Source of the DNA: a virus
Taxonomy: Duplodnaviria > Heunggongvirae > Uroviricota > Caudoviricetes
IMG/VR virus record: IMGVR_UViG_3300010383_000113
Location: 101,830 to 165,829 of that record
Strand: one strand, 5' to 3'
Length of the DNA stretch: 64,000 bases
The notes under the pieces are model-generated. The model saw only the letters and a list, made by a program, of their open reading frames with translations, was not told the DNA's origin and made no database searches. Every line of letters begins with the position of its first letter. Within the stretch, counting starts at the first letter, position 1. The position numbers were made by a program, and so were the translations under genes. Below are positions 1,588 through 49,839 of the stretch, one piece after another.

Positions 1588-1619
1588 ATTATAGGATATC
1601 AAGCTTCGCAACTCTGACA
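1588..1619 (-). promoter_or_regulatory. putative promoter (minus strand: TGTCAG..N20..TATCCTATAAT) in the nrdA-downstream intergenic gap
   Basis: plus-strand attata at 1588-1593 is TATAAT on the minus strand; 33-nt noncoding gap. Confidence 0.3.
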
Positions 1620-3251
1620 GGCCAGCAGGCTCGCCCCCAACTCCTGGGCGGCGTTCACGCTGTACTGGTAGTAGAAAGACTTGATCCCCATCCGCCACCC
1701 CTCGATGTAGAGGGCGTTCACGTCCTTCACGGGCACCTTGGGATGGATCATGAGGTTGAGGGACTGGCCCTGGTCGATGAACTTCTGACGCTGGGCGGCC
1801 TGGACGACCACCTCACGCTGCGAGATCTCGGCGTACGTCTTGAAGACGGCCTTCTCCCGGTCGTCGAGGAAGTCGAGGTGCTGGACCCCGCCGAAGTTCT
1901 TGAGGATCGAATCCCAGACCTCGTCGGTGTTCCTGCCCTTCGACTCCAGGAGGGCTTCGAGCTGGCGGTTCTTGAGGGTGAACTTGCCCTTGGCCCGGTC
2001 CTGGACCTCGTAGTTGGTCCGATACGGCTCGACGCCCTGGGAGACCTGCCCCAGGATGAACGAGGAGGACTTCGTCGGGGCGACGGCCATCAGGGTCGTG
2101 TTGCGTCGGCCGTAGCCCTTCAGGACCTCGGGCTCCCCGAACATCTCCGCCAGCCTCGCCGAGGCGGCGTAGGCGTCGTCGCGGATGGCCCGGAACAGCT
2201 CGACGTTGAGGTACTTGGCCTCCATCGACTCGAAGGGGATCATGCGGAGTTGGAGCAGCGTGTGCCAGCCCATGACGCCGATGCCGAGGGCCCTGTGGCG
2301 TTCCGCGAAGCGGACGGCCCGTTCCATGTAGGGCAGGCCGCCGGCCTTCTCGATGAACTCCGACATCACGGCTTCGAGGACGAAAGTGGCCGTCTCGACG
2401 GCGTCCGTCCCCTTCCACTCGTCGTAGGTGGCGGCGTTCATGCTGAGGAGGTCGCAGACGAACGACTCATCGGGGCCGTCCGGCAGGAAGATCTCGGTGC
2501 AGAGGTTCGAGTGGGTGATCTTGAGTCCGGCGTCCTTGTAGGCGTCGACCGTGGCGTTGTTGGCGTTGTCCGTGAAGAACAGGTACGGATAGCCGACGTT
2601 GGCCCGGCTCGCCAGGACCTTGGCCCAGACCTTCCGCTTGTCAAGGTCCCCGGCGATCATGGACTCCATCCAGGCGTCGGAGATGGTGACGCCGAACGAG
2701 ATGTCCTGGATCGGCGAACCTTCGGACTTGATCGCCAGGAACTCTTCGATGTCTCCATGATCGATCGGAAGGTAGGCGGCGAAACTGCCACGCCGCGTGC
2801 TCCCCTGCGAGATGACGCCGACGAGGGTCTGGAACATCTGCATGAAGTGGACCGACCCGGACGATTTGCCGTTATCCCGGATGTCGCTCCCGCGTGGACG
2901 AACCTCGCCGAAGTAAGCCGACGTGCCGCCGCCGTACTTCGACATCATGCCCACCTCGGCGTGGGTCGACAGGATCGAGGAGACGGTGTCCTCGATATGG
3001 GAGCCGAAGCACGAGATCGGGAGGCCGCGATCCGTGCCGAAGTTCGACCAGATCGGCGACGAGAGCGAGAACCACCCCCGGGCGACGGCGTGCTCGACCC
3101 TGCCGGCCAGTCCGGGGACGCCGATCCGACGCTCGACCTCGCTGGCGATCACCCGCACGCGATCGGGCACGGTCGCCCCTTCCAGCAGGGCGAACGATTC
3201 GAGGAATTTACGCGACAGGTCGTTCAGCCAGACATACTCGGGCGGCGTCAT
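1599..3251 (-). CDS. nrdA: ribonucleoside-diphosphate reductase large subunit (class I)
   Basis: NLCTEI active-site motif, SPIWSNFGT, LGIGVMGWH, C-terminal CQSCEA cysteine pair; start MTPPEYVW (ATG about 3249-3251) overlaps nrdB stop; ORF-track N-terminal extension rejected. Confidence 0.8.
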   Translation of the reverse strand: MTPPEYVWLNDLSRKFLESFALLEGATVPDRVRVIASEVERRIGVPGLAGRVEHAVARGWFSLSSPIWSNFGTDRGLPISCFGSHIEDTVSSILSTHAEVGMMSKYGGGTSAYFGEVRPRGSDIRDNGKSSGSVHFMQMFQTLVGVISQGSTRRGSFAAYLPIDHGDIEEFLAIKSEGSPIQDISFGVTISDAWMESMIAGDLDKRKVWAKVLASRANVGYPYLFFTDNANNATVDAYKDAGLKITHSNLCTEIFLPDGPDESFVCDLLSMNAATYDEWKGTDAVETATFVLEAVMSEFIEKAGGLPYMERAVRFAERHRALGIGVMGWHTLLQLRMIPFESMEAKYLNVELFRAIRDDAYAASARLAEMFGEPEVLKGYGRRNTTLMAVAPTKSSSFILGQVSQGVEPYRTNYEVQDRAKGKFTLKNRQLEALLESKGRNTDEVWDSILKNFGGVQHLDFLDDREKAVFKTYAEISQREVVVQAAQRQKFIDQGQSLNLMIHPKVPVKDVNALYIEGWRMGIKSFYYQYSVNAAQELGASLLACQSCEA

Positions 3252-4225
3252 GCGAAGAGGTCCTCGGCGGTGTAGGATTGGACTTTCTTGGAGTAGGAGA
3301 CGGGCCGTTTGTGGAAGAAGTCCGTGTCCACCGTGGCGAGGATCTCGACGTTGAACCACTCCAGTTCCTTGAGGGCCTCGCGATCGACTTCGAACGCGGG
3401 ACGTCCCCCGATCATCTCCAAACTCTCGTTGAAGCGGTGCTTGATGAATTCCTTGAGCGTGGCCTTCGAGAGGCACTCCAGCTCGCCCTTCTCGAAGATC
3501 CAGTCGATGATGGCACACTCGGCGTCGTAGGCCTTCTTGCAGGCCCGCTGGAGCTTCTCGTAGAAGCCCTCGTGGAACCACTCGGGGCACTCGGCCTTGA
3601 TCTGCTTGATCAGCCACACGCCGAACAGGGCGTGGATCTGCTCCTCCTTGAGGGTGGCCTGGACGACGTTGTCCACGTCCTTGAGGAGGTTGTAGTATTT
3701 GTTGAAGCTCTTGATGACGGCGAACTGGCTGAAGAGGCTGACGTTCTCGATGAAGATGCTGAAGAGGGTCAGCGAGAGCGTGTAGTTCTCGTTCGAGTTG
3801 TCGGCCGCCCCCTTGAGATACTTCGTCAGGTAGTCGACCCTGTCCTGGATCACCGGGTTCTGGAGGAGCTGCTCGAACTCCCCGTTGAAGCCCAGGACCT
3901 CCAGGAGGTGGGAATAGGCGTCGGCGTGGCGGACCTCGCTCTCGCCGTAGCTGATGCCGACCTGTTCGATCTCGGCCTTTGGGAATCGGTCGCCGATCTT
4001 GGTCCAGAAACGCTTGACGCTGACCTCGATCTGCGAGATGGCGAGAAGGGTGTTCTTGATCGCGTTACGCTGGACGTCGTCGAGCTTGACGTGGAAGTCC
4101 TGCACGTCGCTGATGAAGTTCCACTCGCTGACGAGCCAATAGCTGTGGTTGATCGCGTTCTTGAACTCCACGGCCTCCGGATACTCGAAAGGCTTGAACG
4201 CGACCCGACGGTCGAAGATCCCCAA
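3248..4225 (-). CDS. nrdB: ribonucleoside-diphosphate reductase small subunit (class I)
   Basis: SEVRHADAYSHLL (E-x-x-H iron ligands), FIENVSLFSQFAV; C-terminal EDLF; apparent TTG start with GGGGTGGAG upstream. Confidence 0.8.
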   Translation of the reverse strand: MGIFDRRVAFKPFEYPEAVEFKNAINHSYWLVSEWNFISDVQDFHVKLDDVQRNAIKNTLLAISQIEVSVKRFWTKIGDRFPKAEIEQVGISYGESEVRHADAYSHLLEVLGFNGEFEQLLQNPVIQDRVDYLTKYLKGAADNSNENYTLSLTLFSIFIENVSLFSQFAVIKSFNKYYNLLKDVDNVVQATLKEEQIHALFGVWLIKQIKAECPEWFHEGFYEKLQRACKKAYDAECAIIDWIFEKGELECLSKATLKEFIKHRFNESLEMIGGRPAFEVDREALKELEWFNVEILATVDTDFFHKRPVSYSKKVQSYTAEDLFA

Positions 4226-4282
4226 CGCTCCACCCCGTAGACGAAAAAAGCCAGGACGGAGCCCGGCTGCTGACGAATGAAC

Positions 4283-4295
4283 CTATGAACTTATT
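4283..4295 (-). promoter_or_regulatory. putative -10 element CGTCCTACAAT upstream of nrdB
   Basis: member of the cgTCCTAyAAT family, in the 4226-4304 intergenic gap. Confidence 0.3.
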
Positions 4296-4304
4296 GTAGG
4301 ACGA

Positions 4305-4901
4305 CTAGGCGAGGAACCCGTGCCGCTTCAGGTCGCTGATGAAGTTTCGGTCGACAATCCAGCCGAGATCCGGCCTCGTCCGCCTAATAGTTACCCCGTA
4401 CTTCGCGACGATCTCGGCGAATCGAGCGTCCTCGTTCATGGCCGCGTCGGAGAAGCCGCGACGGTCCGCCATCACCCAGTCCAGGACGCCGTGCTCGGCC
4501 AGATAGAGGGCACAGTCCGAGCAGCACTGGCCCGTCACGTACGCCCTCGCCGTGCCCAGCGAACGCAGGTCCACCGTGCTGTTGTCCACGGCGTTGCGTT
4601 CCGAATGGGATATCAGCGAATAGAGCTTGGGTTTGGTCGTCGCCAGGGCGAGGTCGTCGGACCCCGGAGCGAACCCGTTGTAGCCCGTCCCGAGGACGTG
4701 GTGCGTCGCCTTGTCCACGATGACGCAGCCGTGCTTGGTCGACAGGTCGGGGCTGCGACGCGAGGCCAGGAAGGCCAGGCCCATGAAGTAATCGTCCCAA
4801 CTAGGCCGGGAGAGAGTAGCAGGGAGGGCGGGACCAAGGCGGAAGCCGAAACGCCGGCCGAGGGACGCCAGGACGGCACGGAGATTACGCAGGATCGTCA
4901 C
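4305..4901 (-). CDS. dCMP deaminase (cytidine/deoxycytidylate deaminase family)
   Basis: PSWDDYFMGLAFLASRRS, HSERNA (H-x-E zinc motif), CCSDC; a GC-motif copy lies in the N-terminal codons. Confidence 0.7.
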   Translation of the reverse strand: MTILRNLRAVLASLGRRFGFRLGPALPATLSRPSWDDYFMGLAFLASRRSPDLSTKHGCVIVDKATHHVLGTGYNGFAPGSDDLALATTKPKLYSLISHSERNAVDNSTVDLRSLGTARAYVTGQCCSDCALYLAEHGVLDWVMADRRGFSDAAMNEDARFAEIVAKYGVTIRRTRPDLGWIVDRNFISDLKRHGFLA

Positions 4902-5126: not shown

Positions 5127-5471
5127 TTACCCTTCGGACTTGAGTTCTTCGACGCATGCCATGACGTCGCCCACCGTGAGGCTCCTCCCGAGGCCCAGGA
5201 CGGCCGCGTAGACCTCCTGGACGCTCAGGCCGCTGCCGGAGTCGGCCACGGCGTGCTTGACGATCCTGCGGACCTTCCAGCGGGCCAGGAGGCCGGGGTC
5301 GCGGCACTGCTCGACGGCCGACGCCGGGTACAACTGCCAGCACTCATAGGCCAGCAGGATGAGCTTCAGGATGGCGACCACCAGGACGACGTCGACCTGC
5401 TTGGGGGAATTCGAACCGCTGTCGGACGGAATCGACGCCAGGACTTGCGAGGCCAATCTTGTGATTGTCAT
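5127..5471 (-). CDS. hypothetical protein
   Basis: 114 aa ORF. Confidence 0.35.
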   Translation of the reverse strand: MTITRLASQVLASIPSDSGSNSPKQVDVVLVVAILKLILLAYECWQLYPASAVEQCRDPGLLARWKVRRIVKHAVADSGSGLSVQEVYAAVLGLGRSLTVGDVMACVEELKSEG

Positions 5472-6388
5472 TCAATCGCCACCTTAGTGCCCGGAATACA
5501 CCAGGACACATTGTCAGGAAAGAAACCACGGCTCAAATCTTTGCGTCTCAACCTAGCCTTGATATCAGGTGCATCTCCAACATCATTGAAAAACGCCATA
5601 ATGTCATCACGCCACGGTTGATGAACATCGATTCCGTTCTCTCGCGATCTCCTGAGCATCCCGTAGTAAGCGTGCCACTCCTTGGTATTCACTTTGTTGT
5701 GATCGGGCTTCAACAACAACGGCGTCGTCAGTGCCTCCTCGTCCGTCCAGCCATTCTTATGGCGGTTCCAGAGCACCTGATACGACACGCCGATTTCTTC
5801 CGCCCATTCCGACGCCGGCAGAGTCCTCCCGTTGTATGAGATGAACCAGGTGAGTTCTCTGTTGTTGGTGTTATCTCTCGGTGTTGACCAGGAGAGATTG
5901 TTCGGCATGCGGTTGGTCCGGCACCACTCGCAATCTCCGCAAGTATAAGATCCCGTATTGTCCCTCCGATCGATCTGATGCCGAGAGTCAGGTCTCGGAC
6001 CTACGACCTCAAGGAACTTGGCGAAGTCGTTTTTAATGCCGTCGCAAACCACCACGGGGATGGGAAGCCTTCCCCCATATCGATGGTAGGCATGGTGGTT
6101 GGGATTGCCACATCGTTCAAGGATCCCGTACCAAACTCCCCACTCCGGAGATTTTTCCTTACGTGTGGCATGTCCGTGTTTGGTATTTCGTCTGATCATC
6201 CTTTCCGACGTCAGGCACCCGCACGATCGAACATTTCCACGACGTAATTCACCGCCGGCCGACACATGCCAGGATTGCTTGGGGCAGGTACATCGACACA
6301 GCCAAACTCGATCGCCGTTCGACGCCCTGCCCCATTCTCTGACAACTTTCAGGCGGCCAAATTCGCGGCCGACCATCTCAATCATCAA
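5468..6388 (-). CDS. HNH homing endonuclease (HNH_3 type) with N-terminal DNA-binding domain
   Basis: HQIDRRDNTGSYTCGDCEWCRTNRMPNNLSWSTPRDNTNN (H-x-D..N..NL..N..N), NTKHGH..W..RC.NPN..Y..YGG; markedly lower GC than flanks. Confidence 0.65.
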   Translation of the reverse strand: MMIEMVGREFGRLKVVREWGRASNGDRVWLCRCTCPKQSWHVSAGGELRRGNVRSCGCLTSERMIRRNTKHGHATRKEKSPEWGVWYGILERCGNPNHHAYHRYGGRLPIPVVVCDGIKNDFAKFLEVVGPRPDSRHQIDRRDNTGSYTCGDCEWCRTNRMPNNLSWSTPRDNTNNRELTWFISYNGRTLPASEWAEEIGVSYQVLWNRHKNGWTDEEALTTPLLLKPDHNKVNTKEWHAYYGMLRRSRENGIDVHQPWRDDIMAFFNDVGDAPDIKARLRRKDLSRGFFPDNVSWCIPGTKVAIE

Positions 6389-6394: not shown

Positions 6395-7369
6395 TCACCA
6401 AAGATCGAAATGCGATCTGTCCAACTTCTGAGCCGGAAACCCATCAAACATACTGTAGACGAAGCTATCGCCCTGCTTGAGCATGGCGTCGATCGTCTCG
6501 GGACGTACCCGCAAGGTGCCCTTCGGCCAGAGGATCGTAGGATCGCGTAGGTCACGCAATTGTCCGTGAACGTCTCCCCAACTATTGAAGACGCACGCAT
6601 GCGGAGGAATGCCGTCGCCTCCGGTGTCGACGCCCAGGATGGCCATCTGATGGTTCCAGGTGCCCTGTGCCCTCATGAAGCCGGAAGAATCGGCGTTCAT
6701 TTGAAATCCGTAGTTGGATGCTACGGAAACGCCGTATCCATTCTTCACGGCGTCACAGCAGGCGTCCCATCCTGGAACAAGCGAAGAACTCTTGACAAGA
6801 TGCTTCTTACCCTCGGTGATGAAATTTGCCGGCGGACCACTGCCTCGGCCCCAGGACCTAGCCAAGGATCCGCTGTAAGGGGGCACGCCCTCACCATCGG
6901 CGGCCAAGGCTCCATACTGCAAGACGCCTCGACTCCCCCAGACGCCGAGCGACCCGTCCGTCAGTCCCAGACGAGTTCCTCCGATCTGGACGCGAGAAAT
7001 GCCGTAGAAGTATGGGGGAAAGGTGTCATGCCATTCGTAAAACTCGCCATTGAGGATCGGCAAGCACTGAGTCGCATTGATGGCGTTACGAATACCCCAA
7101 CTTACGCAGTCACCTATAGCTTGTGCAATGTTCGGCCAGTCTTTGCCACCACTGATCTTTCTGTAGAGTTCCCAGAGCATGACACGGGCGGGCTTCTCAC
7201 CCTGATCGCCCACGATACGGAACGTCGGAAACTCGTCACCCCAGAGATCGAAGGCCTGACGCAGCAGGTCCGGACGCTCCTGGCCGACGTATCCGCACAA
7301 CTCCTGGACCGGGAACGACCCGTGCTCATTGACGATGACGTCGGACATGGAAACGGCTCCCCTGTGCAT
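6395..7369 (-). CDS. papain-like (C1-type) cysteine peptidase-like protein
   Basis: Q..GDCVSWG (Cys), HQMAILGVD (His), NSWG (Asn) in papain order. Confidence 0.5.
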   Translation of the reverse strand: MHRGAVSMSDVIVNEHGSFPVQELCGYVGQERPDLLRQAFDLWGDEFPTFRIVGDQGEKPARVMLWELYRKISGGKDWPNIAQAIGDCVSWGIRNAINATQCLPILNGEFYEWHDTFPPYFYGISRVQIGGTRLGLTDGSLGVWGSRGVLQYGALAADGEGVPPYSGSLARSWGRGSGPPANFITEGKKHLVKSSSLVPGWDACCDAVKNGYGVSVASNYGFQMNADSSGFMRAQGTWNHQMAILGVDTGGDGIPPHACVFNSWGDVHGQLRDLRDPTILWPKGTLRVRPETIDAMLKQGDSFVYSMFDGFPAQKLDRSHFDLW

Positions 7370-7417
7370 AAAGGCGTGATTAGACCATCACACATAAATA
7401 CGCCGGGGAGCCGATCT

Positions 7418-8392: not shown

Positions 8393-8764
8393 TTATTCGT
8401 CGGGAGTTTCGCCGTCTTCGCCCACCCCCTGCTCCTCTTCGGCCTCGGCCGTCTGGGGAGCAGCAGGGAGGGCGGGTTCGTCGACGGCCGTTTCGGCGGA
8501 GGCGGGGTCTTCGGTCGACTCAAGCTTGTCGATGTCGGCCTGGATGTCGGCGAGAGAAGGCCCGGGGACGATATCGGTCAGGTCGACCTCCTCGGCGGGG
8601 ACCTCGACCGTCTCGACCAGTAGTTCGTCGGCGTCGGTTTCGGGCGAGGGCACCAGGTTCTCGAAGAAGGTCGGCGGCAGGACGAGGTTGACCTGGCCGG
8701 TGTAGACGGGGGGCGTGTCGAGGACGTTCTCGGGCTTGGCGGGGTCGATGGGCTGGCTGGACAT
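8393..8764 (-). CDS. acidic hypothetical protein
   Basis: 123 aa, highly acidic; C-terminus EEEQGVGEDGETPDE encoded by an inverted pair of GC-motif copies. Confidence 0.45.
   Translation of the reverse strand: MSSQPIDPAKPENVLDTPPVYTGQVNLVLPPTFFENLVPSPETDADELLVETVEVPAEEVDLTDIVPGPSLADIQADIDKLESTEDPASAETAVDEPALPAAPQTAEAEEEQGVGEDGETPDE
8421..8476. repeat. inverted pair of GC-rich motif copies (CCCACCCCCTGCTCC..N19..GGAGCAGCAGGGAGGGCGGG)
   Basis: direct reading; lies inside coding sequence. Confidence 0.6.
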
Positions 8765-9240
8765 CAGCAGAACTCCTGGAATTGTCGGTCGGCTTTCTTC
8801 TTCATCTTGGCCATCGCGGCGTGGTAGACGCCTGCGGCCTCCTCGGGACTCATGGACAGGGCCTCGCCGATCCGCTTGAAGGTCATGTCGTCCCGGAATC
8901 GCATGTCGACGACGGCACGTTCGCGGTCGTCCAGATGGGCCAGGAGCCGGCCCGCCACCTCCTGGGCGTCGAGCCGGGCCTCCAGGTCCTCGAACGGCCG
9001 GGATTCGACCGGCCCCGGCGGGGCCTCCCTGACCTTCCGCATGAGCCGACGCTTCCGGAACTCGGTCCGCTGATGCGTGATCATCATGCGGCGGACGCTG
9101 AAGTACAGCGACGTGACGAATTTCCGGCGGCTGTCGGGCTTGTGGCCGATCAGGGTCTTCATGAGGGCGATGCGTCGGATCTGCTCGCCCTCCTCATGGG
9201 TGATATAGGGCACGAAGGGCAGGCACGCCCTCGCCATCAT
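8764..9240 (-). CDS. ECF-type sigma-70 family sigma factor
   Basis: region 4 LDDRERAVVDMRFRDDMTFKRIGEALSMS; region 2-like IRRIALMKTL..FVTSLYFSVRRMMI. Confidence 0.65.
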   Translation of the reverse strand: MMARACLPFVPYITHEEGEQIRRIALMKTLIGHKPDSRRKFVTSLYFSVRRMMITHQRTEFRKRRLMRKVREAPPGPVESRPFEDLEARLDAQEVAGRLLAHLDDRERAVVDMRFRDDMTFKRIGEALSMSPEEAAGVYHAAMAKMKKKADRQFQEFC

Positions 9241-9298: not shown

Positions 9299-9955
9299 TC
9301 AGAGGTCGTAGTAGACCTCCCCGCCCACGGCCGTCTTGGCGTTCACGTAGTCGGCCAGGCGTCGCACGACGGCCCGGTCGTCGCCGCTCCGGACGAAGTC
9401 GACGGAGCCGTTGGGCAGGGCCAGGAGGGCCCAGAACTGCCCCTTCTCCCTCGCCTCGGACTCCACCTCGACGATGGCCCGGTCGACGTCCGGCCTCCCG
9501 TCCCGCGAGGAAGGGTCGGCCCCGAGGAGCCGCTCGATCCCACGCCGGATGCGGCTCGTGTTCCAGCCGCCGGCCGCGAACGCCTTGCCGAACCCCACCT
9601 TGAACCGATACCGGGTCAGGACGTCCAGGGTCTCCACCCCGGGGAACTCCTCGATCTCTTCGAGGACCTCCTCCGAGATGTTGAAGTTGGCGTGGCCCGT
9701 CCAGAAGTCGAAGGCCTTGGTCGTGTCGGCGGCGATCTTGGTGGGCACCAGGCCCGCCGAAGTCGGGATCAGGACCGGGAGGGCGGCCAGGCGATCGGGC
9801 CGGACGAACCCGTCCTCCACCTCGTCGCCGTCGTCGTCCTCGTGGTCGGCCCCCATGTACTCGGACGGCCGGGCCTCGTCCTCGGGCACCCACTCCCTGC
9901 TCCCGCCCAGCGGATGCTGCCAGTATTCCCAGCGGATCTTACGAACCGGCTCCAT
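9299..9955 (-). CDS. hypothetical protein
   Basis: 218 aa ORF; no recognisable motif. Confidence 0.45.
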   Translation of the reverse strand: MEPVRKIRWEYWQHPLGGSREWVPEDEARPSEYMGADHEDDDGDEVEDGFVRPDRLAALPVLIPTSAGLVPTKIAADTTKAFDFWTGHANFNISEEVLEEIEEFPGVETLDVLTRYRFKVGFGKAFAAGGWNTSRIRRGIERLLGADPSSRDGRPDVDRAIVEVESEAREKGQFWALLALPNGSVDFVRSGDDRAVVRRLADYVNAKTAVGGEVYYDL

Positions 9956-10883
9956 GAATCAGTTCCATGATCTGTCGTCCTTCGAGGGCGGCGTTCATGT
10001 CCAGCCCGAAAGTCTTTTCCGGAAATCCCCGCAGTTTTGCGAAGAACTCTCCCTGCTCCCGCTTGTTGTCGACCCCCTCGGCGATCAGGGCGTGTCGAAG
10101 GTCTTCCTCGTCGTATCCGTCCAGGAAGTCGCGAAGGACCGCCATCTCCATCCGCGTGAACGAGACGGCGTCGAACCGATAGTCCAGGAAGGCCTCGAAG
10201 CAGATCGGGGCCACCTTGTGGACGATGCCGGCGATCACGTCGGCGAACGACCGGGTCTGGGCCTGGGCGTCGGGCTTGCACCTCAGCGACAGGAAGTGGA
10301 ACAGGTTGTGGAGGTCCATCTTCCAGTTGAAGTAGGTGTAGGTCGACAGCGGCAGGTCGATCCGGGCCATCTCCCGGGCGATCCCATCCGCCAGGTTCTC
10401 TTTGTAGGACGAGAACGCTTGGCGGGCCAGGAAGTCGTGCAGCTCGACGAAATCCTCGTACTGGGCCGGCGAGACCGGGCCTCCGCTCCCCTGCTTGTTG
10501 TCGGACGACTGGAAGCAGACCTCGGAGGAGCAGGGGGTGTAGACGACGTCCGGCAGTTCGACGTATCGGCCGGAGATCTCATTGGCGTTGCTCGTGCGAT
10601 GTCTCATCCACTGCCGGGCCACGAAGATTGGCATTCCGATGTGGAAGCTCAGCTCGGTGGACTCGAACGGCGAGGTGTGGCGATGCCGCATGAGGTAGCG
10701 GAGAAGGCGTCGGGTGTCGGCGATGCTGCGGGCCTGCGGGGCGATCTCGTAGGAACCTCGGGCGAACCGTTCCACGGCCAGGTCCCCGCCCATGTAGTCG
10801 GTCAGGGCGACGAAGCCGTGGTCGAGTACGGGGAAGTACCTATCGAGGATCTCGTCGGCCGCCGGGATGGCGAGTCTCGGCAC
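9939..10883 (-). CDS. thyX: flavin-dependent thymidylate synthase ThyX
   Basis: RHRHTSPFESTELS (ThyX RHR-x7-S motif), LDHGFVALTDYMGGD; start probably GTG near 10883 rather than the ORF-track ATG at 10958, which would overlap the upstream gene by 74 nt. Confidence 0.8.
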   Translation of the reverse strand: MPRLAIPAADEILDRYFPVLDHGFVALTDYMGGDLAVERFARGSYEIAPQARSIADTRRLLRYLMRHRHTSPFESTELSFHIGMPIFVARQWMRHRTSNANEISGRYVELPDVVYTPCSSEVCFQSSDNKQGSGGPVSPAQYEDFVELHDFLARQAFSSYKENLADGIAREMARIDLPLSTYTYFNWKMDLHNLFHFLSLRCKPDAQAQTRSFADVIAGIVHKVAPICFEAFLDYRFDAVSFTRMEMAVLRDFLDGYDEEDLRHALIAEGVDNKREQGEFFAKLRGFPEKTFGLDMNAALEGRQIMELIHGAGS

Positions 10884-10884
10884 G

Positions 10885-11241
10885 TCAGTCCTCCGACGGC
10901 CGGTAGCCGTGCATGATCCGGGCGACGGCCTCGGTCGGGGGGACGACGGGGTCGTCACGCCGGGCCCGCATCTTCTCGTTCATGAAGCCGGCCATGTGAC
11001 GCTTGATCTCCCGGGCGTCGCCCTGGGCGTCCATGACCTCGGCGAACCCGTCGACGGCCTCGACGATCTGGGGGATGCAGGACCCGATCTGGAGGTGGGT
11101 GATCAGGCCGGCGAAGGCCTTCAGGTCGGTGTCGGGGCCCCACTCGGCCAGGAAGGTGGGCTCGTCGCCGGCCAGCTCGACCACGATCCGGGCCAGGATC
11201 TCGTCGTCCGCCTCCACCTCGATCTCGATCTCTTCGCTCAT
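10885..11241 (-). CDS. acidic hypothetical protein
   Basis: likely start MSEEIEIEVEADDE (ATG about 11239-11241). Confidence 0.4.
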   Translation of the reverse strand: MSEEIEIEVEADDEILARIVVELAGDEPTFLAEWGPDTDLKAFAGLITHLQIGSCIPQIVEAVDGFAEVMDAQGDAREIKRHMAGFMNEKMRARRDDPVVPPTEAVARIMHGYRPSED

Positions 11242-12391: not shown

Positions 12392-12667
12392 TCACGGGAG
12401 GAAGGTGCCCTGGTTGGGGCCGTGGCCGTTGGGGGCCAGCTCGACCTGGGCGGGCCGATTGCTGCGGGCCTGCTCATAGGCGGCGAAGTCGGCGAGGACG
12501 CCGTTCAGCGTGGCCAGCGTCATGCCGGTGTCGCGGAGGATGCCGTCCTTGTCGAACAGCCCGGCGGTCCGCTTGAAGAACCAGAGCAACTGGTTGATCA
12601 CGAGCTTGGCGGCGGCGGTCTCGGCCTCGGCGGCGTCGATCAGGTCTTGCATTTCTTCTTCAGTCAC
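12392..12667 (-). CDS. hypothetical protein
   Basis: 91 aa ORF; two GC hairpins downstream at 12330-12391. Confidence 0.4.
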   Translation of the reverse strand: MTEEEMQDLIDAAEAETAAAKLVINQLLWFFKRTAGLFDKDGILRDTGMTLATLNGVLADFAAYEQARSNRPAQVELAPNGHGPNQGTFLP

Positions 12668-13142
12668 TTCGGATCTCCAGGCTGTTTTCGTCTCGGGGTG
12701 GCGGGTTGAATTTGACCATGCGTGGGGCCGGAGCCCTGAATTTCGTCATCTTTTCGGGGGTGCGGACGATCGGCTCGGGCTTTTGCCATCCATCCTCTTG
12801 GAGGATCTCCTCGACCAGGGCCCACACATCCAGGATTCTAGGACATGAGGAAAAGTTCTTGGCGGCCCTCTTGGCTTCGAAGCGGCGGAGACGCTCGGCG
12901 TCGCGGTCGCTGTAGATGTGGTCGGACGTGGCGACGTGGGGATCACGAGACGGACGGTGGCTCATGACGGGCGGCTCCTGGATGTTCGGCGTCGAATCCT
13001 TCGTCGGACCCTGCGGTCTGGCTGATCGTGAGATGGCATCCTCCTCATGGATGTGCCGCCACTTTATGCGAGAGCGTCCTTGCACGCAAGCAAAATGCGG
13101 CTTCGACGACCGTTTTCGAAAAGAAACGGGAGGGGGTTCCAT
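12660..13142 (-). CDS. hypothetical basic protein
   Basis: ATG at 13142 preceded by GGAGGGGGTGCAGG and a promoter-like element. Confidence 0.35.
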   Translation of the reverse strand: MEPPPVSFRKRSSKPHFACVQGRSRIKWRHIHEEDAISRSARPQGPTKDSTPNIQEPPVMSHRPSRDPHVATSDHIYSDRDAERLRRFEAKRAAKNFSSCPRILDVWALVEEILQEDGWQKPEPIVRTPEKMTKFRAPAPRMVKFNPPPRDENSLEIRSD

Positions 13143-13162
13143 CCTGCACCCCCTCCAGTTAT

Positions 13163-13191
13163 ATTATAGGATACGAACTCTCGCCTGTCAG
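13163..13191 (-). promoter_or_regulatory. putative sigma-70-like promoter (minus strand CTGACA-N17-TATAAT, extended GTATCCTATAAT)
   Basis: 45-nt intergenic gap; 17-nt spacing. Confidence 0.4.
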
Positions 13192-13658
13192 CGAGGATCG
13201 ACTCCGACATAGAACCGCTCATACCCCTTGGGGATCATGGCGGACGGGATCACCTCGCCGGTCTTCCAGTTCTTGGAGTACGGCATGGTGGTCGGAGTGC
13301 CCATCACCATGTTGGGGATGCCACGCGGACCCGACTGGTCCGGCCTGAACGTCGGGCCGCCGATCTTCGGTGCCCTTCCCTCCTGCACGGCCGACATGGG
13401 GGTCCGCTTCTCTCTCGGGCGTCCCGCCGAGGCGTCGACGGCGGCCTTGTAGGCCTCGACCCGCCGCATGGACTCCATCTCGGCCATCATCTGGCGGGCC
13501 ATGGCCTCGTCGCGGGCCTGCTGGTTGTGGCGGGCGTAGGCGGCCCGCTTGCGGGCCATCCGCTCCTTCACACTCTGGGGCTGGGACTGGGCCCGGACGT
13601 CGGCCCCGACCAGGACGGCCGAGGCGGCGACGACCAGGGCGAGGATGCGATGCTTCAT
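13188..13658 (-). CDS. secreted hypothetical protein
   Basis: signal peptide MKHRILALVVAASAVLVGADVRA. Confidence 0.5.
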   Translation of the reverse strand: MKHRILALVVAASAVLVGADVRAQSQPQSVKERMARKRAAYARHNQQARDEAMARQMMAEMESMRRVEAYKAAVDASAGRPREKRTPMSAVQEGRAPKIGGPTFRPDQSGPRGIPNMVMGTPTTMPYSKNWKTGEVIPSAMIPKGYERFYVGVDPR

Positions 13659-15061: not shown

Positions 15062-15173
15062 GCGGCCCTCCTCGTGGATGATCGTGGGTGCGGCGGGCCG
15101 CGTCGAGCGGACGCCCTACACAATCAATCTACGCGGAGCGGCGAAAAATACAAATTGGATTTCGAGTTTTTCT

Positions 15174-16100: not shown

Positions 16101-16694
16101 TCAACGCCTAATAAAACCTAGCACTTCGTCGGGATACAGCTTCTCGACGTCGAAGCACATCCAGCGTTTGTGGTGGTTGAACGAGGCGGAGAAGGCGATC
16201 TCGTCGAGGTATCCGAGGACCCCGTCCATGTCGTCGAAGAAGAGTTCGTGGGGCAATTTCCCGAACAGCCAGTCGGGGATCGCCGCCTTGCCCTGCTTGC
16301 ACCAGACCAGGACGGGCTTCTTCTGGTCGTTGGCCCGGGAGATCTCGTCGTAGGTGCCGCAGGCGTGGACGTCAAGGTCGACGAGGGCCACCAGGAAGTC
16401 GGAGACGTTGACCATCCGCAGGTCGATGGCGTGGATCTTCTTCATGATCGAGGCGAAGTCGTCGTAACCGGCCGGGCCCTTGAAGGCGTGGCGGGCCTTT
16501 CGGCTCTCGTCGTCCTCGTGGGCCTCGTCGATCGGCTTGTCCATCGGGTCGAGCACGACGATCCCGCGACGGTGGAGTTCCGGGGTGATGCGTCGCCGCC
16601 ATTCGCGGCCGGAATTCGGGCATCGGTCGATGGGGCCGGCGAGGTAGGCTCTCTGGCCCAACAAACGCGAAACGGTTTTCAATTTCCTGGACAT
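16101..16694 (-). CDS. nucleoside 2-deoxyribosyltransferase-like protein
   Basis: start MSRKLK (ATG about 16692-16694); AYLAGPIDRCPNSGREWRRRITPELHRRGIVVLDP resembles the NDT family N-terminus. Confidence 0.5.
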   Translation of the reverse strand: MSRKLKTVSRLLGQRAYLAGPIDRCPNSGREWRRRITPELHRRGIVVLDPMDKPIDEAHEDDESRKARHAFKGPAGYDDFASIMKKIHAIDLRMVNVSDFLVALVDLDVHACGTYDEISRANDQKKPVLVWCKQGKAAIPDWLFGKLPHELFFDDMDGVLGYLDEIAFSASFNHHKRWMCFDVEKLYPDEVLGFIRR

Positions 16695-16734
16695 GATTTC
16701 TCCAACGAGGGCGATCCGGTCAAGCCACAACCTG

Positions 16735-16750
16735 TACGTAGGACGGGATC
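16735..16750 (-). promoter_or_regulatory. putative -10 element CGTCCTACGTA upstream of 16694 start
   Basis: cgTCCTAyAAT family member. Confidence 0.25.
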
Positions 16751-16830
16751 GGCCGCCTGCGGCGGCGGAGCAGGGAGGGCTGGGCCTGTGCGTTGCGGCG
16801 ACGTCGTCATGTCCCCCACTCCCTGCTACT
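16751..16830. repeat. hairpin GCCGCCtgcGGCGGC fused to GGAGCAGGGAGGGC, and inverted partner CCCCCACTCCCTGCTACTC 33 nt away
   Basis: direct reading. Confidence 0.6.
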
Positions 16831-17002
16831 CTTCTCCGTCCGGGCTGATCAGGATGGGGGCGACGATCTCTCACGAGGGTCGCGGAGCCGATCCCCGGGG
16901 CGGCCTTCCGGGGGAGGAGCAGGGAGTTCGGGGGAGGGGAAGATTTTCCACGCGGCTTGGCACGAGAGAACGGCACCGTTTTTGCTATTAATACTTCTTG
17001 GA

Positions 17003-17030
17003 AGCTTTATTGCCCGAAGGGCATAAAGCT
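17003..17030. other. stable stem-loop AGCTTTATTGCCC-GAA-GGGCATAAAGCT in AT-rich patch
   Basis: 12 bp stem with one bulge and GAA triloop. Confidence 0.4.
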
Positions 17031-17494
17031 CCAAGAAGAAGAAAGGTATGCCTCCCTCTCCCCTCCGAGCTTCTTTCCGGAATTCCCAAAGTTTTTTCCG
17101 AGATCGCCGCCCTGCCCTCCCGGCCCGTCCCGCCGCCGGTCTTGATGCGAGGCGTCCTAGAATAGTTATACCGGGGCACTGGGTCATGATGCCGCCGTCG
17201 GGATGTGGGTCCAGCCGAGACGAGTCGACCGTCGAGGCCGTTCCTGGGGTGCCCGAAACCAGTTCCGCGTCCCAGACGCCGGGTTGATCGAGAGATCGCC
17301 ACGCCGTCCGGTCGCGACGTTCGAGGATCCGAGCCTGTCAACGCGGCGTCCGACTGAGACGCCCGGCTCGGCCCGTCCGTCGCGTCGGCCCGGCGGGGTA
17401 GTCTCCCTCGGTCGGCCCGACGGATGGAGACGCGGTTGACCATCAAGACGACTCTTCAACGTGATGACAAGTGGATTTTTAGAAGGAATTTCTC

Positions 17495-19282: not shown

Positions 19283-19284
19283 AC

Positions 19285-20383: not shown

Positions 20384-20426
20384 GAAAAAAGCCGCAGAGG
20401 TCGTGCCCCTGCGGCTTGGTTCTTCA
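20384..20426. terminator. bidirectional rho-independent terminator between convergent genes
   Basis: AAAAAA-GCCGCAG-loop-CTGCGGC-TTGGTTCTT; a U-run follows the hairpin on both strands. Confidence 0.6.
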
Positions 20427-21194
20427 GTCGATGATCTCGGCGATGGCCACCTTCATGCTGGCGGCGGCGGTCTCGTAGGCCTCGGCCGACTCCTTGGGGT
20501 TCAGCTTGAGGCGGCGGCCGATCTTGGCGAGGGACTCGGGCTCCTCCCGGTCGATCCCGAAACGCCTCACGAGGAAGTAGCGTTCGGCGGGGTCGATGCG
20601 ATGGAGGCCGTCCCGGACCAGCTTCACGACGCCGTCGCAGCCGATGTCCGAGGGGTCGGCCTCGTCCTCGTCGGCCACGTCGAGCCTGGTGCCGTCCTCT
20701 CGCGGCGAGTGGAAGGAGGCCGTCTTGCGAGACGCCAGCACGGCCACGATGGCGTCGTACTCGTCCGACGACAGGTCGAAGGACGACATCGCCTCCTCCT
20801 TGGTCGGACGGCGGCCGTTCTCGTCCTGGAACCAGCGGACGAGCCGCTGAAACTTCAGGATGGTCTTGCTGGCGTGGACGGGGACGCGGATCAGGGTGCC
20901 GTTGCGATAGATCGCGTTCTGGATGGCCTCGACCACCCGGAACTTCGCGTGGGTGGAGAACCGGGCCTTGCCGGGGTCGAAGTCCTCGACGGCACGGCAG
21001 AGGCCCAGCATCCCTTCCTGCATCAGGTCCTCGCGTTCGACGCCGCGTCCGACATATGTACGGGCGACGGCCCGGACCAGGGGGATGTGCTTGGCGACCA
21101 GGTCGGCTTTCGACGTGGGCCGGCAGTTCGTGTCGGCTTCGACGCCGCAACCTTCGAAAAAACCACGTTCCTCTTCCAGCGTCAGGTAGGCCAT
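20424..21194 (-). CDS. sigma-70 family sigma factor (group 3-like)
   Basis: region 2 DLMQEGMLGLCRAVEDFDPGKARFSTHAKFRVVEAIQNAI; region 4 YFLVRRFGIDREEPESLAKIGRRLKLNPKE. Confidence 0.7.
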   Translation of the reverse strand: MAYLTLEEERGFFEGCGVEADTNCRPTSKADLVAKHIPLVRAVARTYVGRGVEREDLMQEGMLGLCRAVEDFDPGKARFSTHAKFRVVEAIQNAIYRNGTLIRVPVHASKTILKFQRLVRWFQDENGRRPTKEEAMSSFDLSSDEYDAIVAVLASRKTASFHSPREDGTRLDVADEDEADPSDIGCDGVVKLVRDGLHRIDPAERYFLVRRFGIDREEPESLAKIGRRLKLNPKESAEAYETAAASMKVAIAEIID

Positions 21195-21497: not shown

Positions 21498-21510
21498 AAT
21501 ATAGGACAGA
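21498..21510 (-). promoter_or_regulatory. putative -10 element TGTCCTATATT in 75-nt intergenic gap
   Basis: cgTCCTAyAAT family. Confidence 0.3.
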
Positions 21511-21548: not shown

Positions 21549-21802
21549 TTAGGCGTGAAACGGCACGATGCAATAGGAATCTTCGAGATGTCCGCATGTC
21601 GATGCCAGTTCAGCCTTTCGGCAAGCCTCGCGGTAGGACGGGAATCGGGTGGCGGTGGCGGGGTCGGTCGTGAACCGGGTGCCCCAGACGTAGGAGGCGA
21701 TCGGGCGGCGGGGGTTGTCGACGCGGATGATGAGCGATTCGGCCATCGGGGTCTCCGGGTGAAAGTTCGGCGGACCCCTGTAATGTAGGACGAGCGGATC
21801 CA
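21549..21802 (-). CDS. hypothetical small protein
   Basis: ATGATG at about 21797-21802 lies 4 nt after GGAGCAGGGAGG; an alternative start MAESLII (about 21740) is preceded by CGTCCTACATT and GGAG. Confidence 0.35.
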
Positions 21803-30933: not shown

Positions 30934-31854
30934 TTAGGACAAGACAACGCTGGGCTTCGGGCCGTCGTCTTCTCCACCAGTCAGGTAGTCCGAGATCCAA
31001 GTCCACCGTCGCTTGTTCTCGATCCTGGGGCCGTGGACGACCCGTCTCCAGTGCCCCCTCCTGTGTTGGGGTGCCATCCGGAGATCTGAGAAAGTAGCAG
31101 GGGGAGTATAGGACGAAGGCCTGGCCTTCAAGACCAGGTCCCTGAAGACGATCTGCTGGAACTGGCGAGCGGCGAGGTGCTGGAGCTTGGGGTCGCGGCC
31201 TTGGCGGTGCCGGACCGTCTTCGTGGGCAGGGGCGTCGTCGAGATCTGCCGGTGGGCCGCGAGCATGACCAGGTTGCAGGCCACTCGGCCGCCCAGCACG
31301 ACCAGGCGGACCTCGTCCTCGTCGTCGGCCCCCTCGGCCAGGATGAGCTGGTCCTCGATCGTGGGGGTTCTGGTATCACCGATCATTGTATGGTACATCA
31401 CCTGGTTATACTTCGAGAGAGTCCAAAGCATGACGGTGTCCGGAAACATCTTCCAGGCCATCGTCAGCGATCCCTTGTGGCGTCCGACGATCTCCTCGGG
31501 CAGTTCGACGCCGATGATGGGGAACGGCATCCGGAACTCTCGGGTCGAAACACGGATCTCCGTCTCATGCAGAGCACGACAGAGATCCAGGTTCGGCCGG
31601 ATGATGACGGGACCCTGACGCATCCAGAGGCCGAGGCAGCGGTACGCCAGGGCGGTGGGGGCGATCTCCGAGCGAGGAATCTCGGTCCCGCTGAGTAGTT
31701 GTTCGGCTAAAGGGCCCCTGTCGCCGATCCGGACGTCGTGACTGGTCGTGGATTCGCCCCTCTCGATCTCCAACTCGTCGTAGACGTCCCAGGACAACTG
31801 GAGGGCCTCTTTCGGGAAGTATCGCGTCAGGTCATCCACGGCCACGCCTCTCAA
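30934..31854 (-). CDS. hypothetical protein
   Basis: 306 aa ORF; internal CGTCCTATACT -10-like element at 31100-31115 with adjacent motif. Confidence 0.4.
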   Translation of the reverse strand: MRGVAVDDLTRYFPKEALQLSWDVYDELEIERGESTTSHDVRIGDRGPLAEQLLSGTEIPRSEIAPTALAYRCLGLWMRQGPVIIRPNLDLCRALHETEIRVSTREFRMPFPIIGVELPEEIVGRHKGSLTMAWKMFPDTVMLWTLSKYNQVMYHTMIGDTRTPTIEDQLILAEGADDEDEVRLVVLGGRVACNLVMLAAHRQISTTPLPTKTVRHRQGRDPKLQHLAARQFQQIVFRDLVLKARPSSYTPPATFSDLRMAPQHRRGHWRRVVHGPRIENKRRWTWISDYLTGGEDDGPKPSVVLS

Positions 31855-45710: not shown

Positions 45711-45778
45711 TCATGAAATTCAGACCGGGAATCGCGTTTATGTATCAGAACGACTGGTGTAGGACCCAGTAAGGGGTC

Positions 45779-46506
45779 TCAGGTGACGTTTGTGCGGCGT
45801 TTGTTCTCTACGATGAGTTTGATCGCCGCCGGGGAAACGCCGTATACTCGGGCGATTTCGGCCTTCCGACGGCCGTCCTGATAGAGTTTGCGAATTCCAC
45901 GTACGTCATCGTCCGAGAGTTTCTTCCTCGGTTGACCCTGAGCTTTAGGATTGGGCGTAGGACTGTAGTGAATGCCCGTGAGGCTGCTCCAGGATCTTCC
46001 TTTGATGATCGCGTTGATGGTGGTCGGGTCAACGCCAAAGAGAGCGGCGATTTGCTCCTGCGAAAGGCCCTCGTCTTTGTAGAGCCTGATGATTTCCAGG
46101 ACTTTATCAGGGTCGAGTTTTGCGTGGGGGTGGTGACCACCGGGTTGGAGGTAGTTGGTGCCGTGCTCGACCTGATCCTGGTAGTTCTCGGCCGGGCTAC
46201 CGTATTTGAGGTTGTCCAGTCTGTTGTTGGATGGATCCCCGTCGAGGTGCCGGATGAGCATCCCATCCGGTCTAGGCCCAACGTAAGTCAGGAGTACGAG
46301 TTCGTGGACGAAGAAGAAGTTCTTCCTCCCGAGTTCCACCCCGCGATGCCCCCTGTACTGGACGCTCTGCTTAAGCTGCTTCCAAGGCCCGGTGACGATA
46401 TGGTCTTTTCGTTTGTAGTGAAGGTTTGACCAAACGGTGCCGTCGTTGCCAACTCGGTAGTTGCTATAGCCGGGAACAAGGCGATACTCAACTCGAAATT
46501 CCACCG
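45779..46506 (-). CDS. HNH homing endonuclease (NUMOD4 + HNH_3 + C-terminal HTH repeats)
   Basis: YRVGNDGTVWS, HLDGDPSNNRLDNLKYGSPAEN; GTG start with AAGGAG; lower GC than flanks. Confidence 0.65.
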
Positions 46507-46680
46507 GCAGACGTCTCCTTGATGTTGAAGTGCATGGCCTGGGTGATGATCGGACCTTCGCAGTAGACCGAAAGGTCGATGGCGACCTTGACGGCGGCCT
46601 TGGGGTCGTGGCCGAGGTGCATGGCGGCCGTGGCGAAGTCGCAGCCGGCCCCGATGGCGTCGTACGCCAGGATCTCGTCA
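46507..46680 (-). pseudogene. C-terminal fragment of an HslV/proteasome-beta-like (Ntn hydrolase) gene
   Basis: NHCDGYYVDEILAYDAIGAGCDFATAAMHLGHDPKAAVKVAIDLSVYCEGPII aligns with the HslV C-terminus; N-terminal 100+ residues absent, in-frame stop upstream. Confidence 0.3.
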
Positions 46681-46795
46681 ACGTAGTAGCCGTCGCAGTG
46701 GTTTCAAAAGCTTCTTCGAAGCTTAACGGATGGGATCGGTAGGGAGTTTGAGGTGATACTCAAGTGATGGAACAACTCGGCCGGGAGGTCGACCT

Positions 46796-47536: not shown

Positions 47537-47793
47537 CAAGAATTCTCCGGAGTAGCAGGGAGGGAAGGGTGATATTCCTTTGTCCTGTCTGGCAGGTCTG
47601 TGTATATAAGAGCCGCATAGACAGAGCCTTGAGTGCCCTGGCGAACATGCTTCCAATATGGACCCTCGGCTACAACCCAGATGTACTCAACGTCCGCCGG
47701 GATTAGGTCCCTGCAATAGTTTGTGTCCGGCAAGGTAAGCACTGGAATGTCAGGACCAAGAAGTAATTTGCGAGCGAGTTCATGTGTGGTCAT
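47536..47793 (-). CDS. hypothetical protein
   Basis: ends PATPENS within a repeated 30-nt junction sequence. Confidence 0.4.
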   Translation of the reverse strand: MTTHELARKLLLGPDIPVLTLPDTNYCRDLIPADVEYIWVVAEGPYWKHVRQGTQGSVYAALIYTDLPDRTKEYHPSLPATPENS

Positions 47794-48903: not shown

Positions 48904-49130
48904 TATGAAACCCTCTCCGCTTTGAGTTCGAATGATGCGATCGTCTTGACCTCCTCTTCATAGGACACGATCCGGACGATCTTGTAGGTGCGGACGATGT
49001 CCGCACTCTCGCAGGTCTCCTCGATGTCCCAGATGGCCTGTTCCGCATCTTCGAGCGTCCGGTATCCGTCGAAGACCCAGGCCCATTTTCCGTTCTTTTC
49101 GAGCGTGTAGATCGTGAACGTGACGTTCAT
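48903..49130 (-). CDS. hypothetical protein
   Basis: 75 aa ORF. Confidence 0.4.
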   Translation of the reverse strand: MNVTFTIYTLEKNGKWAWVFDGYRTLEDAEQAIWDIEETCESADIVRTYKIVRIVSYEEEVKTIASFELKAERVS

Positions 49131-49552
49131 GAGGTTGTTCCGGGGAGTAGCAGGGAGGGGCGAAGTTTGGTTTCCACTTGGAGTTCACCATGTTCATCTT
49201 GGAAGAACTTGGCGTAGACGACCTCGATATGCAGATGCTCGTTGTAGTAGGTTTGATCCACCCCCTGCTCCAGGCCCGCCAGGGCCTTCTTGTGCAGAGT
49301 TCGAGGGTTCCACCTTCGCCACTTGAACTCGCGAATGGAGCCGGGATCGAAGTTCTTTGCGATACCCTCCCCGTCGTCGTCTGCTGTCAGAAGATCGACT
49401 ATGGCGTCTTCGATGATCTCGTCCGTCGAAGTGAACGAGTAACGCTGGACGGGCTCAAGCAACAGGACAGGCCGGTCGAATTCCCAGCGGGCGTCCCAGG
49501 TCACGGACAGGAAGCGGATGGTCTGGTTCAGGGGTGGGCGATAGTTAGGCAT
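49127..49552 (-). CDS. hypothetical protein
   Basis: start MPNYRPP; CGTCCTACTGT -10-like element at 49560-49575. Confidence 0.4.
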   Translation of the reverse strand: MPNYRPPLNQTIRFLSVTWDARWEFDRPVLLLEPVQRYSFTSTDEIIEDAIVDLLTADDDGEGIAKNFDPGSIREFKWRRWNPRTLHKKALAGLEQGVDQTYYNEHLHIEVVYAKFFQDEHGELQVETKLRPSLLLPGTTS

Positions 49553-49839
49553 CAGTCTACCCAAGACAGTAGGACGAGGCTCCAGTCGACGGGTTCCAGG
49601 TTGGACTTTGCACGGGCCGCATTCACCTTGCCGAGCCACACGTCAATGAAGTCGTCGTCCATGTGGTGTCCGACCCCGACCTCTTCGTCCTGGTCGTCGT
49701 AGAGCGTGAGGAAGGTGTCGTCGTTGTAGCCCTCCAGGCTGATCCTCCAGCCGTCGGGCAGATACTCGGCGGTCGCGAAGAGTTTCTGGAGGTCCATGCA
49801 GAAGTCGGTCCGGCTCGTATGCGTGAGAAGTGGAGGCAA
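49552..49839 (-). CDS. hypothetical acidic protein
   Basis: 95 aa ORF. Confidence 0.35.
   Translation of the reverse strand: MPPLLTHTSRTDFCMDLQKLFATAEYLPDGWRISLEGYNDDTFLTLYDDQDEEVGVGHHMDDDFIDVWLGKVNAARAKSNLEPVDWSLVLLSWVD

Follow-up and report, generated by a model that had tools for sequence, protein, structure and literature searches.

The DNA analyzed here is a 64,000-nt stretch (positions 101,830 to 165,829 of the IMG/VR record IMGVR_UViG_3300010383_000113), referred to as the window, which is part of a single 171,667-bp Joint Genome Institute (JGI) contig. The window is about 60% GC and its genes are densely packed. Nearly all of them lie on the minus strand, the sole plus-strand block being 17495-20381, and true gaps make up about 9.7% of the DNA. 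This analysis concerns a short element found in a few of these gaps, yR-TCC-TAyAnT, and its candidate reader, a 256-aa sigma70-family factor encoded at 20424..21194 on the minus strand. The genes adjoining the element include those for the small (nrdB, 3248-4225) and large (nrdA, 1599-3251, stop codon 1599-1601) subunits of ribonucleotide reductase (RNR) and a dCMP-deaminase-like gene (4305-4901, stop codon 4305-4307), all three on the minus strand, as well as parB (21803-22639).

In the window, TCCTAYANT occurs six times against 0.87 expected, always on the minus strand. Five of these copies lie in gaps, at 1588, 4293, 13163, 21498 and 21782, and all five are co-oriented with the genes. Site 1 (TCCTATAAT, in context gaTA-TCC-TATAAT; 1588..1596, minus strand) begins 2 nt past the nrdA stop codon, 63 nt before the ATG at 1525. 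The transcript predicted from this site has at its 5′ end a stable hairpin (1537..1579, minus strand; -27 kcal/mol, z = -2.4) that no T-run follows. Site 2 (TCCTACAAT, tCG-TCC-TACAAT; 4293..4301, minus strand) is located upstream of nrdB and begins 3 nt past the end of the dCMP-deaminase-like gene. Its predicted start point is followed, after about 17 nt, by an intrinsic terminator (4243..4268, minus strand), which consists of a 7-bp stem (4249-4268) followed by TTTTTT. Site 3 (again TCCTATAAT, gTA-TCC-TATAAT; 13163..13171, minus strand) is followed, from its predicted start, by a GC-rich hairpin (13119..13156, minus strand) with a 9-bp stem and then GTTTCTTTT. The start of the gene after site 3 is uncertain: the gene caller placed it about 200 nt downstream (12965), and the ATG of the open reading frame (ORF) 12660-13142 is only 21 nt downstream. 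Site 4 (TCCTATATT, cTG-TCC-TATATT; 21498..21506, minus strand) precedes a 73-aa ORF and the sigma gene. Site 5 (TCCTACATT, tCG-TCC-TACATT; 21782..21790, minus strand) begins 12 nt past the stop codon of parB and precedes the ATG at 21746 by 36 nt. The sixth exact copy (TCCTATACT, hexamer TATACT; 31105..31113, minus strand) is ambiguous. Its position is the weakly coding tail of ORF 30934-31854 (coding score zero or lower); it reads in frame as Ser-Tyr and is directly followed by a copy of a GC-rich motif described below.

The six hexamers are TATAAT (twice), TACAAT, TATATT, TACATT and TATACT. T-12, A-11, A-9 and T-7 are invariant, position -10 is a pyrimidine and position -8 is free; as read from these copies, the conservation profile mirrors that of sigma70-type -10 elements. 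The two bases ahead of TCC are a pyrimidine and a purine in every copy, and a purine stands at +7 after the hexamer in 6/6. The six bases after the hexamer are AT-rich at four sites, and three sites belong to the ten or so AT-richest intergenic islands. The five firm sites start 2-42 nt past the preceding stop codon, so the -35 position falls inside the preceding gene. When a TTGACA-like -35 was sought at a distance of 16-19 nt, the best matches for sites 1 to 5 were 3, 1, 5, 2 and 2 of 6, the mode for random sequence being 2-3. Only site 3 has a good -35, the CTGACA at 13186-13191 with a 17-nt spacer (11/12 consensus positions), just as had been claimed from the letters alone; the other four sites (1-3 of 6) are at the random level. 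The proposed extended -10 behavior is thus borne out, with a usable -35 at only one of five sites. Canonical two-hexamer promoters were not enriched anywhere in the window. Start codons are found 36-75 nt downstream of the sites at 1588, 4293, 21498 and 21782. Neither a shared -35, nor a shared downstream structure, nor a longer repeat was found around the sites. A GC-rich hairpin occurs within 4-17 nt downstream of them, and these hairpins are heterogeneous, most being no stabler than shuffled sequences. Sites 1588 and 21498 are identical at 16/19 bases and contain the only two copies in the window of the exact palindrome CCTAT-N7-ATAGG (1579-1595 and 21489-21505). The palindromes overlap the -10 to +1 region of both sites and may be an operator for a regulator.

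A weight matrix was built from the five gap sites, which score 25.8, 20.8, 24.8, 24.7 and 17.8 bits in the order given above. All other matches in the window score 13.6 or less, and the copy at 31105 reaches only 9.8 when its flanks are included. The gap in matrix scores shows that the family is small and sharply bounded, with no continuum of weaker members. TCC stands before 5/7 intergenic TAYANT hexamers and before 1/12 coding ones, the background of TCC in gaps being 2.3%. The motif had been chosen after seeing the data, and for this reason family-wise tests were run. Among all 9-mers with two wildcards, the pattern TCCTANANT ranks 7th (5 gaps against 0.19 expected, score 5.8). In the a priori family of patterns containing TAnnnT, the element is the top pattern and was equaled by 1/2000 shuffles (0.05%), and the antisense strand of the same gaps gave nothing comparable in this test. 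TCCTA did not stand out in an unbiased test of k-mer enrichment in gaps, and a count-based family-wise test was uninformative since GC-rich low-complexity patterns dominate it. Intergenic motif discovery, which had been suggested as a check, thus supports the element within the TAnnnT family, whereas the blind 9-mer search is non-significant. A literal literature search for TCCTATAAT returned irrelevant matches only.

These results bear on the explanation that the element has no function, and that AT-rich, -10-like strings in the gaps of a GC-rich genome were combined with a post hoc choice of pattern and with TCC-TAY codon pairs. We consider this explanation unlikely. The 7th rank and the score of 5.8, which lies inside the shuffle distribution, favor it. 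The shuffles of the promoter-shaped family, the excess of TCC ahead of gap hexamers, the pyrimidine-purine step in all six copies, the resemblance of sites 1588 and 21498 and the discontinuity of the matrix scan argue against it. We conclude that yR-TCC-TAyAnT is real as a sequence element.

The short core of the element behaves differently from the longer form. GTCCTAY is present in 21 copies in the window, 21 on the minus strand and 0 on the plus strand, where shuffles expect 9 ± 3. Inside minus-strand genes, however, 27/40 copies of TCCTAY are in frame as TCC-TAY (Ser-Tyr). Permutation of codons within genes gave 16.8 sense and 3.6 antisense copies (about 5:1), which leaves a 2.4-fold sense excess of TCCTAY over the codon shuffles. 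Serine before tyrosine is encoded by TCC in 27/48 cases (56%), as opposed to 29% of serines overall, and the reverse complement of the core contains TAG and rare codons. The 21:0 bias is mainly a coding effect. This explains the strand bias in the manner expected if the strings had no function, and several of the copies listed earlier are clearly coding or have no hexamer. Orientation consistency had been offered as evidence for a transcription signal, and this argument falls, because codon usage and the preference for the TCC-TAY codon pair produce the bias. For the same reason, the comparison of both orientations, in which equal frequency would have spoken against the motif, gives 21:0 and yet does not discriminate in this genome, since coding alone skews the strands. 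This calls for caution: genomes transcribed almost entirely from a single strand yield strand-consistent short motifs through codon and codon-pair usage. Orientation consistency alone is insufficient as evidence for a transcription signal, and here TCC-TAY accounts for most copies.

All nine strings listed in the sequence-only reading are present on the minus strand, with small slips of coordinate. They are TATCCTATAAT (1588-1598), CGTCCTACAAT (4293-4303, given as 4283 and thus 10 nt off), GTATCCTATAAT (13163-13174), CGTCCTACGTA (16735-16745), TGTCCTATATT (21498-21508), CGTCCTACATT (21782-21792), CGTCCTATACT (31105-31115), GGTCCTACACC (45756-45766) and CGTCCTACTGT (49566-49576). The statement that they lie mostly in gaps holds for 1588, 4293, 13163, 16735, 21498, 21782 and 45756, but not for 31105, which is in an ORF tail, or for 49566, which is inside a gene end. 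What was confirmed is a conserved element fused to a TAnnnT hexamer, located in gaps and co-oriented with transcription, represented by the five exact TCCTAYANT copies. A family of 9 to 13 members did not hold up, as there are five firm sites and a sharp drop of the matrix score beyond them. The copies at 16735, 45756 and 49566, together with those described as weaker, have no TAnnnT hexamer, or are coding, or both. Similarly, the conserved block is not CGTCC; the invariant part is TCC after a pyrimidine-purine step (TA, TA, CG, CG and TG).

Divergent promoters are needed at only one place in the window, the 785-bp region 16731-17515. It contains a plus-strand variant, absent from the earlier list, TCCTAGAAT (gCG-TCC-TAGAAT; 17155..17163, plus strand), which faces the plus-strand operon 17495-20381. 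The best plus-strand matrix match of the whole window, gcgTCCTAGAAT (17152-17170), falls in this region; the probability of this happening by chance is 785/64000, about 0.01. On the opposite strand, CGTCCTACGTA precedes the ATG at 16696 by about 38 nt; this ATG opens the first gene of the unit transcribed on the minus strand away from the region. The hexamer of the 17155 variant, TAGAAT, fits TAnnnT (A-11, T-7), whereas that of the 16735 variant, TACGTA, does not. The opposed variants provide a moderate independent check of the element, and a plus-strand copy where a plus-strand promoter is needed is a further point against chance. A small ORF downstream of 17155 was considered and ruled out by negative coding scores. 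A string GGAAC-N16-CGTC is also found here (17219-17244, minus strand), and a second perfect one (49573-49597, minus strand) lies at a gene junction and overlaps the copy at 49566.

Two sigma factors had been reported in the window, and both were confirmed. The first is the 256-aa protein (20424-21194), in which regions 2 and 3 and part of region 4 are present, region 2 exceeding the Pfam threshold. The second is a small protein (8764..9240, minus strand) with Sigma70_r4 and a weak Sigma70_ECF match, resembling extracytoplasmic function (ECF) factors. The ECF-like protein is an unlikely reader of the element because no firm site has an AAC-type -35. The GGAAC-N16-CGTC strings are possible targets of this factor, the pattern overall being at chance frequency. 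The 256-aa sigma matches SigA, RpoD and RpoS chains with similar scores (E 1e-26 to 1e-20) and is about 31-36% identical to each of the three; its nearest database homologs reach 36% identity at most. An ungapped alignment (query 1-57) to residues 427-483 of E. coli sigma70 pairs H107 with H455 and K110 with E458, and K110 corresponds to K173 of sigma-S. In E. coli, the sigma-S extended -10 has TC at -14/-13, and K173 of helix 3.0 contacts C(-13), on which sigma-S selectivity mainly depends, while housekeeping sigma factors carry Glu at this position (PMC3367168, PMC6719511). None of the 12 nearest homologs has Lys at the K110 position, their residue being Q, E or S. The invariant C upstream of the hexamer fits the predicted Lys-bearing helix 3.0 of the 256-aa sigma, and on these grounds this protein is plausibly the reader of the element, more so than the other candidates. 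If the element is a promoter, it is somewhat more likely to be read by the element's own sigma than by that of the host. The host sigma may be the reader, particularly at 13163 with its good -35.

Taken together, the data suggest that yR-TCC-TAyAnT represents a small set of putative -35-independent extended -10 promoters, plausibly read by the sigma factor encoded on the same DNA. We assign this reading a probability of roughly 0.55. According to it, the whole recognition signal would be a sigma70-type -10 hexamer (TAyAnT) with an upstream TCC at -15 to -13. The RNA polymerase holoenzyme would bind this single element without a -35 box, the AT-rich stretch after it would melt, and transcription would start at a purine about 7 nt further on. 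The mRNAs made in this way would open with a GC-rich hairpin. Two tandem copies upstream of the sigma gene would give positive autoregulation; the remaining copies stand ahead of nrdB-nrdA, of the genes that follow nrdA and of those after 13188. If so, the RNR genes, the sigma gene and neighboring genes would together make up a small, self-contained regulon in a lineage without sequenced relatives. It would also provide a further natural case in which a helix-3.0 residue (Lys instead of Glu) shifts the specificity for the extended -10. A more detailed version is possible but doubtful. In it, the orphan genetic element of about 172 kb would have a divergent sigma of its own that reads a -35-independent class with TCC at -15 to -13 through K110 and has altered melting residues, H82 and R86. 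The sites at 4293 and 13163 would fire into intrinsic terminators, which would imply units under antitermination control or units that yield RNAs of about 40 nt, and the two tandem copies would auto-activate the sigma gene.

Several observations weigh against the promoter interpretation. The blind-search score of 5.8 is within the range of the best patterns in shuffled gaps (median 5.4, 90th percentile 6.3). The sites at 4293 and 13163 sit upstream of a terminator-like hairpin and T-run, which reverses the usual order of terminator and then promoter. The plus-strand copy at 17155 leaves a leader of about 325 nt, and the 16735 variant has no T-7. The 256-aa sigma deviates at two nearly invariant positions of region 2.3, H82 and R86. 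The element carries T-C-C at -15/-14/-13, with C-14 in 6/6 copies, where sigma-S promoters have T/G-C at -14/-13. All 5-7 sites are located within 1-31 kb and none in the 32-64 kb half, which means that the element is not a general promoter of this DNA. Finally, no related genome in which the conservation of the element might be checked was found in any of the collections searched.

The element could instead be an asymmetric site for a regulatory protein, like an operator or stoperator, where a bound repressor blocks initiation or elongation and no promoter is involved. The L5-type stoperators of cluster A mycobacteriophages, asymmetric sites of 13 nt, occupy short intergenic spaces and are oriented according to the direction of transcription (PMC9283540). 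The sites described here, like those of L5 and Bxb1, are short and asymmetric, lie in short gaps and have their orientation locked to transcription. Their placement upstream of terminator-like hairpins would not be awkward for such a protein. The exact CCTAT-N7-ATAGG and the 16/19 bases shared by two sites look operator-like, although just 2/5 sites are palindromic. A maintained, repressed state is made plausible by the RepA/ParA/ParB module of the window, and FliZ sets a precedent for proteins that bind -10-like sequences other than promoters (PMC3367168). Stoperators, however, number more than 20 per genome and are spread across the L5-type genomes; they are 13-mers that do not resemble a -10 hexamer, and their repressor is known. 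In our case the 64-kb window has only 5-7 sites, confined to half of it, their conservation is -10-like, and no repressor candidate was recognized among about 60 window proteins scanned. There is no reason why a generic DNA-binding protein should mimic the -10 conservation pattern. We regard a repressor site as an unlikely explanation.

It is less probable still that the signal acts at the RNA level, with UCCUAYAAU between a stop codon and a hairpin serving as an endoribonuclease processing site and the 5′ hairpin protecting the downstream mRNA. The comparison here would be with T4 RegB and with RNase E sites beside stem-loops. RNase E-type sites typically combine a single-stranded, AU-rich stretch with an adjacent stem-loop, and the element invariably occurs in the sense orientation, 2-42 nt past a stop codon, with a GC-rich hairpin 4-17 nt downstream. 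On the other hand, these hairpins are heterogeneous and mostly no stabler than shuffled sequences, and no endoribonuclease was recognized among the scanned proteins. Moreover, there is no plus-strand gene upstream of the copy at 17155 from which an RNA could be processed, and it would have to be accidental that the copies follow the conservation pattern of a DNA -10 element.

ECF-type promoters read by the 8764-9240 sigma, with the CGTC of CGTCCTA as the -10, are very improbable: four copies do read TCGTCCTAY, the window does encode such a factor, and the 49566 copy lies within a perfect GGAAC-N16-CGTC with another match in the divergent region (17219-17244), but a GGAAC-like -35 with a CGTC -10 is missing at all five firm sites (0/5 with an AAC-type -35 at 15-18 nt), two of these have TA instead of CG before TCC, and the window has 10 matches to G[GA]AAC-N15-18-CGTC, 9 of them coding, a number that is about chance by a rough base-composition estimate made with no shuffle control.

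The extended -10 promoters to which the favored interpretation points were compared with known systems. The likeness to sigma-S (RpoS) promoters lies in the invariant C (6/6 copies) directly upstream of TAnnnT, in the weak or absent -35, and in the Lys of the 256-aa sigma at the position of K173 and E458, where K110 is predicted to contact DNA. Nevertheless, the 256-aa sigma is probably not an RpoS orthologue, given its similar scores to SigA, RpoD and RpoS. The classical extended -10 (TGnTATAAT) likewise combines a -10 hexamer with a 3-nt upstream extension that makes up for the missing -35. The difference is that TCC replaces TGn, and TG at -15/-14 is absent, T-C-C being invariant. In the classical case, the TG contact uses E458 and H455, and the contact Glu (E458) is replaced by Lys in the 256-aa sigma. 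The late promoters of phage T4 (TATAAATA) also consist of a single element in the -10 region, and are read by the phage sigma-like protein gp55. This is a minimal, highly divergent sigma which needs gp33 and the sliding clamp. The resemblance to our case is the single -10-region element together with an encoded sigma-like protein. Among the systems compared, the closest precedent is gp36, the sigma factor of phage phiEco32, which reads six single-element 9-nt promoters, tAATGTAtA, that have no -35 and whose transcripts start 6-8 bp downstream (PMC8948821). They agree with our sites in copy number, length and layout, and the sigma is encoded in both cases. The sequence is different, gp36 has no region 4, whereas the 256-aa sigma aligns through part of it, and the phiEco32 promoters were mapped experimentally, whereas the sites described here are known from sequence alone.

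Two further kinds of intergenic sequence were noted. The GC-rich motif G[T/G]AGCAGGG[A/G]G has 55 copies with at most one mismatch in the whole window, as opposed to about 10 expected, and 19 of them are exact. Examples are found at 1567-1575, 16821-16829, 30908-30916, 34026-34034, 47552-47560, 50912-50920 and 52198-52206. The motif lies mostly at gene junctions and often forms one arm of a hairpin; in its G-rich orientation it sometimes doubles as a ribosome-binding site (27979, 53613). It is present within 30 nt of several TCCTA sites. It occurs on both strands, and the contrast drawn in the sequence-only reading between the oriented element and an orientation-free GC motif is correct. The second kind comprises AT-rich intergenic islands without the TCC element (15144-15167, 35014-35037, 16986-17009, 7377-7400 and 17467-17490), exemplified by TTGTAT-N16-TAGATT in the gap 15062-15173. 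These are candidate promoters of another class.

No near relative of the window was detected by megablast against deposited phages or by an IMG/VR protein search. In a search of 5.8 billion database proteins, the 467-aa protein (13658-15061), the 256-aa sigma (20424-21194) and the RepA-like initiator (25206-26606) gave high-identity matches only to themselves, the next best being 36% identical or less; these self-only matches mark a lineage without sequenced relatives. A metagenome scan with nrdA gave 66-67% identity at best, and an IMG/VR scan tagged by a 14-mer of the GC motif returned 78 single background matches. No locus retrieved in these searches, those around distant sigma and RepA homologs included, had either motif or anything in common with the window beyond RNR genes. 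Known RNA families and tRNAs were looked for in the window, and none were found.

Among the other genes of the window are those for thymidylate synthase (9939-10958), a nucleoside deoxyribosyltransferase-like protein (16101-16976), dUTPase, PRPP synthetase and a split NAMPT. ParA (22636-23439), ParB and the RepA-like initiator (PF10134) form a plasmid-like replication and partition module (21803-23439, 25206-26606), and no virion genes are present in the window. Instead of a strictly lytic phage, the genetic element may represent a phage-plasmid or a large plasmid. Relatives of RepA (about 30% identity) are located on plasmid-like contigs of metagenome-assembled genomes, together with PATR, PEP-CTERM and PF07638-type ECF genes, and these contexts suggest Planctomycetota- or Verrucomicrobiota-like hosts. 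An iteron-like tandem array (26689-26890, within 26607-27010) with units of about 43-45 nt, containing TGGAGTCAAA and GAGTAGG, sits between the RepA-like initiator gene and a strong terminator (26917-26951 also cited). The arrangement looks like a plasmid-type origin.

Possible signs of mobile DNA were observed at three places. The ORFs 5468-6388 and 6395-7369, amid genes of nucleotide metabolism, have atypical codon usage and lower GC, and may be mobile or recently acquired. The 300-aa protein encoded at 45779-46681 combines an HNH_3 endonuclease domain with several helix-turn-helix domains and looks like a free-standing homing endonuclease. NAMPT is divided between two ORFs, 56626-57456 and 54290-56080 (region 54290-57456), with a third ORF (56043-56663) overlapping the junction. 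An HNH endonuclease segment occupies residues 362-408 of the ORF 54290-56080, and the split may be due to an intein, an intron or a homing-endonuclease insertion.

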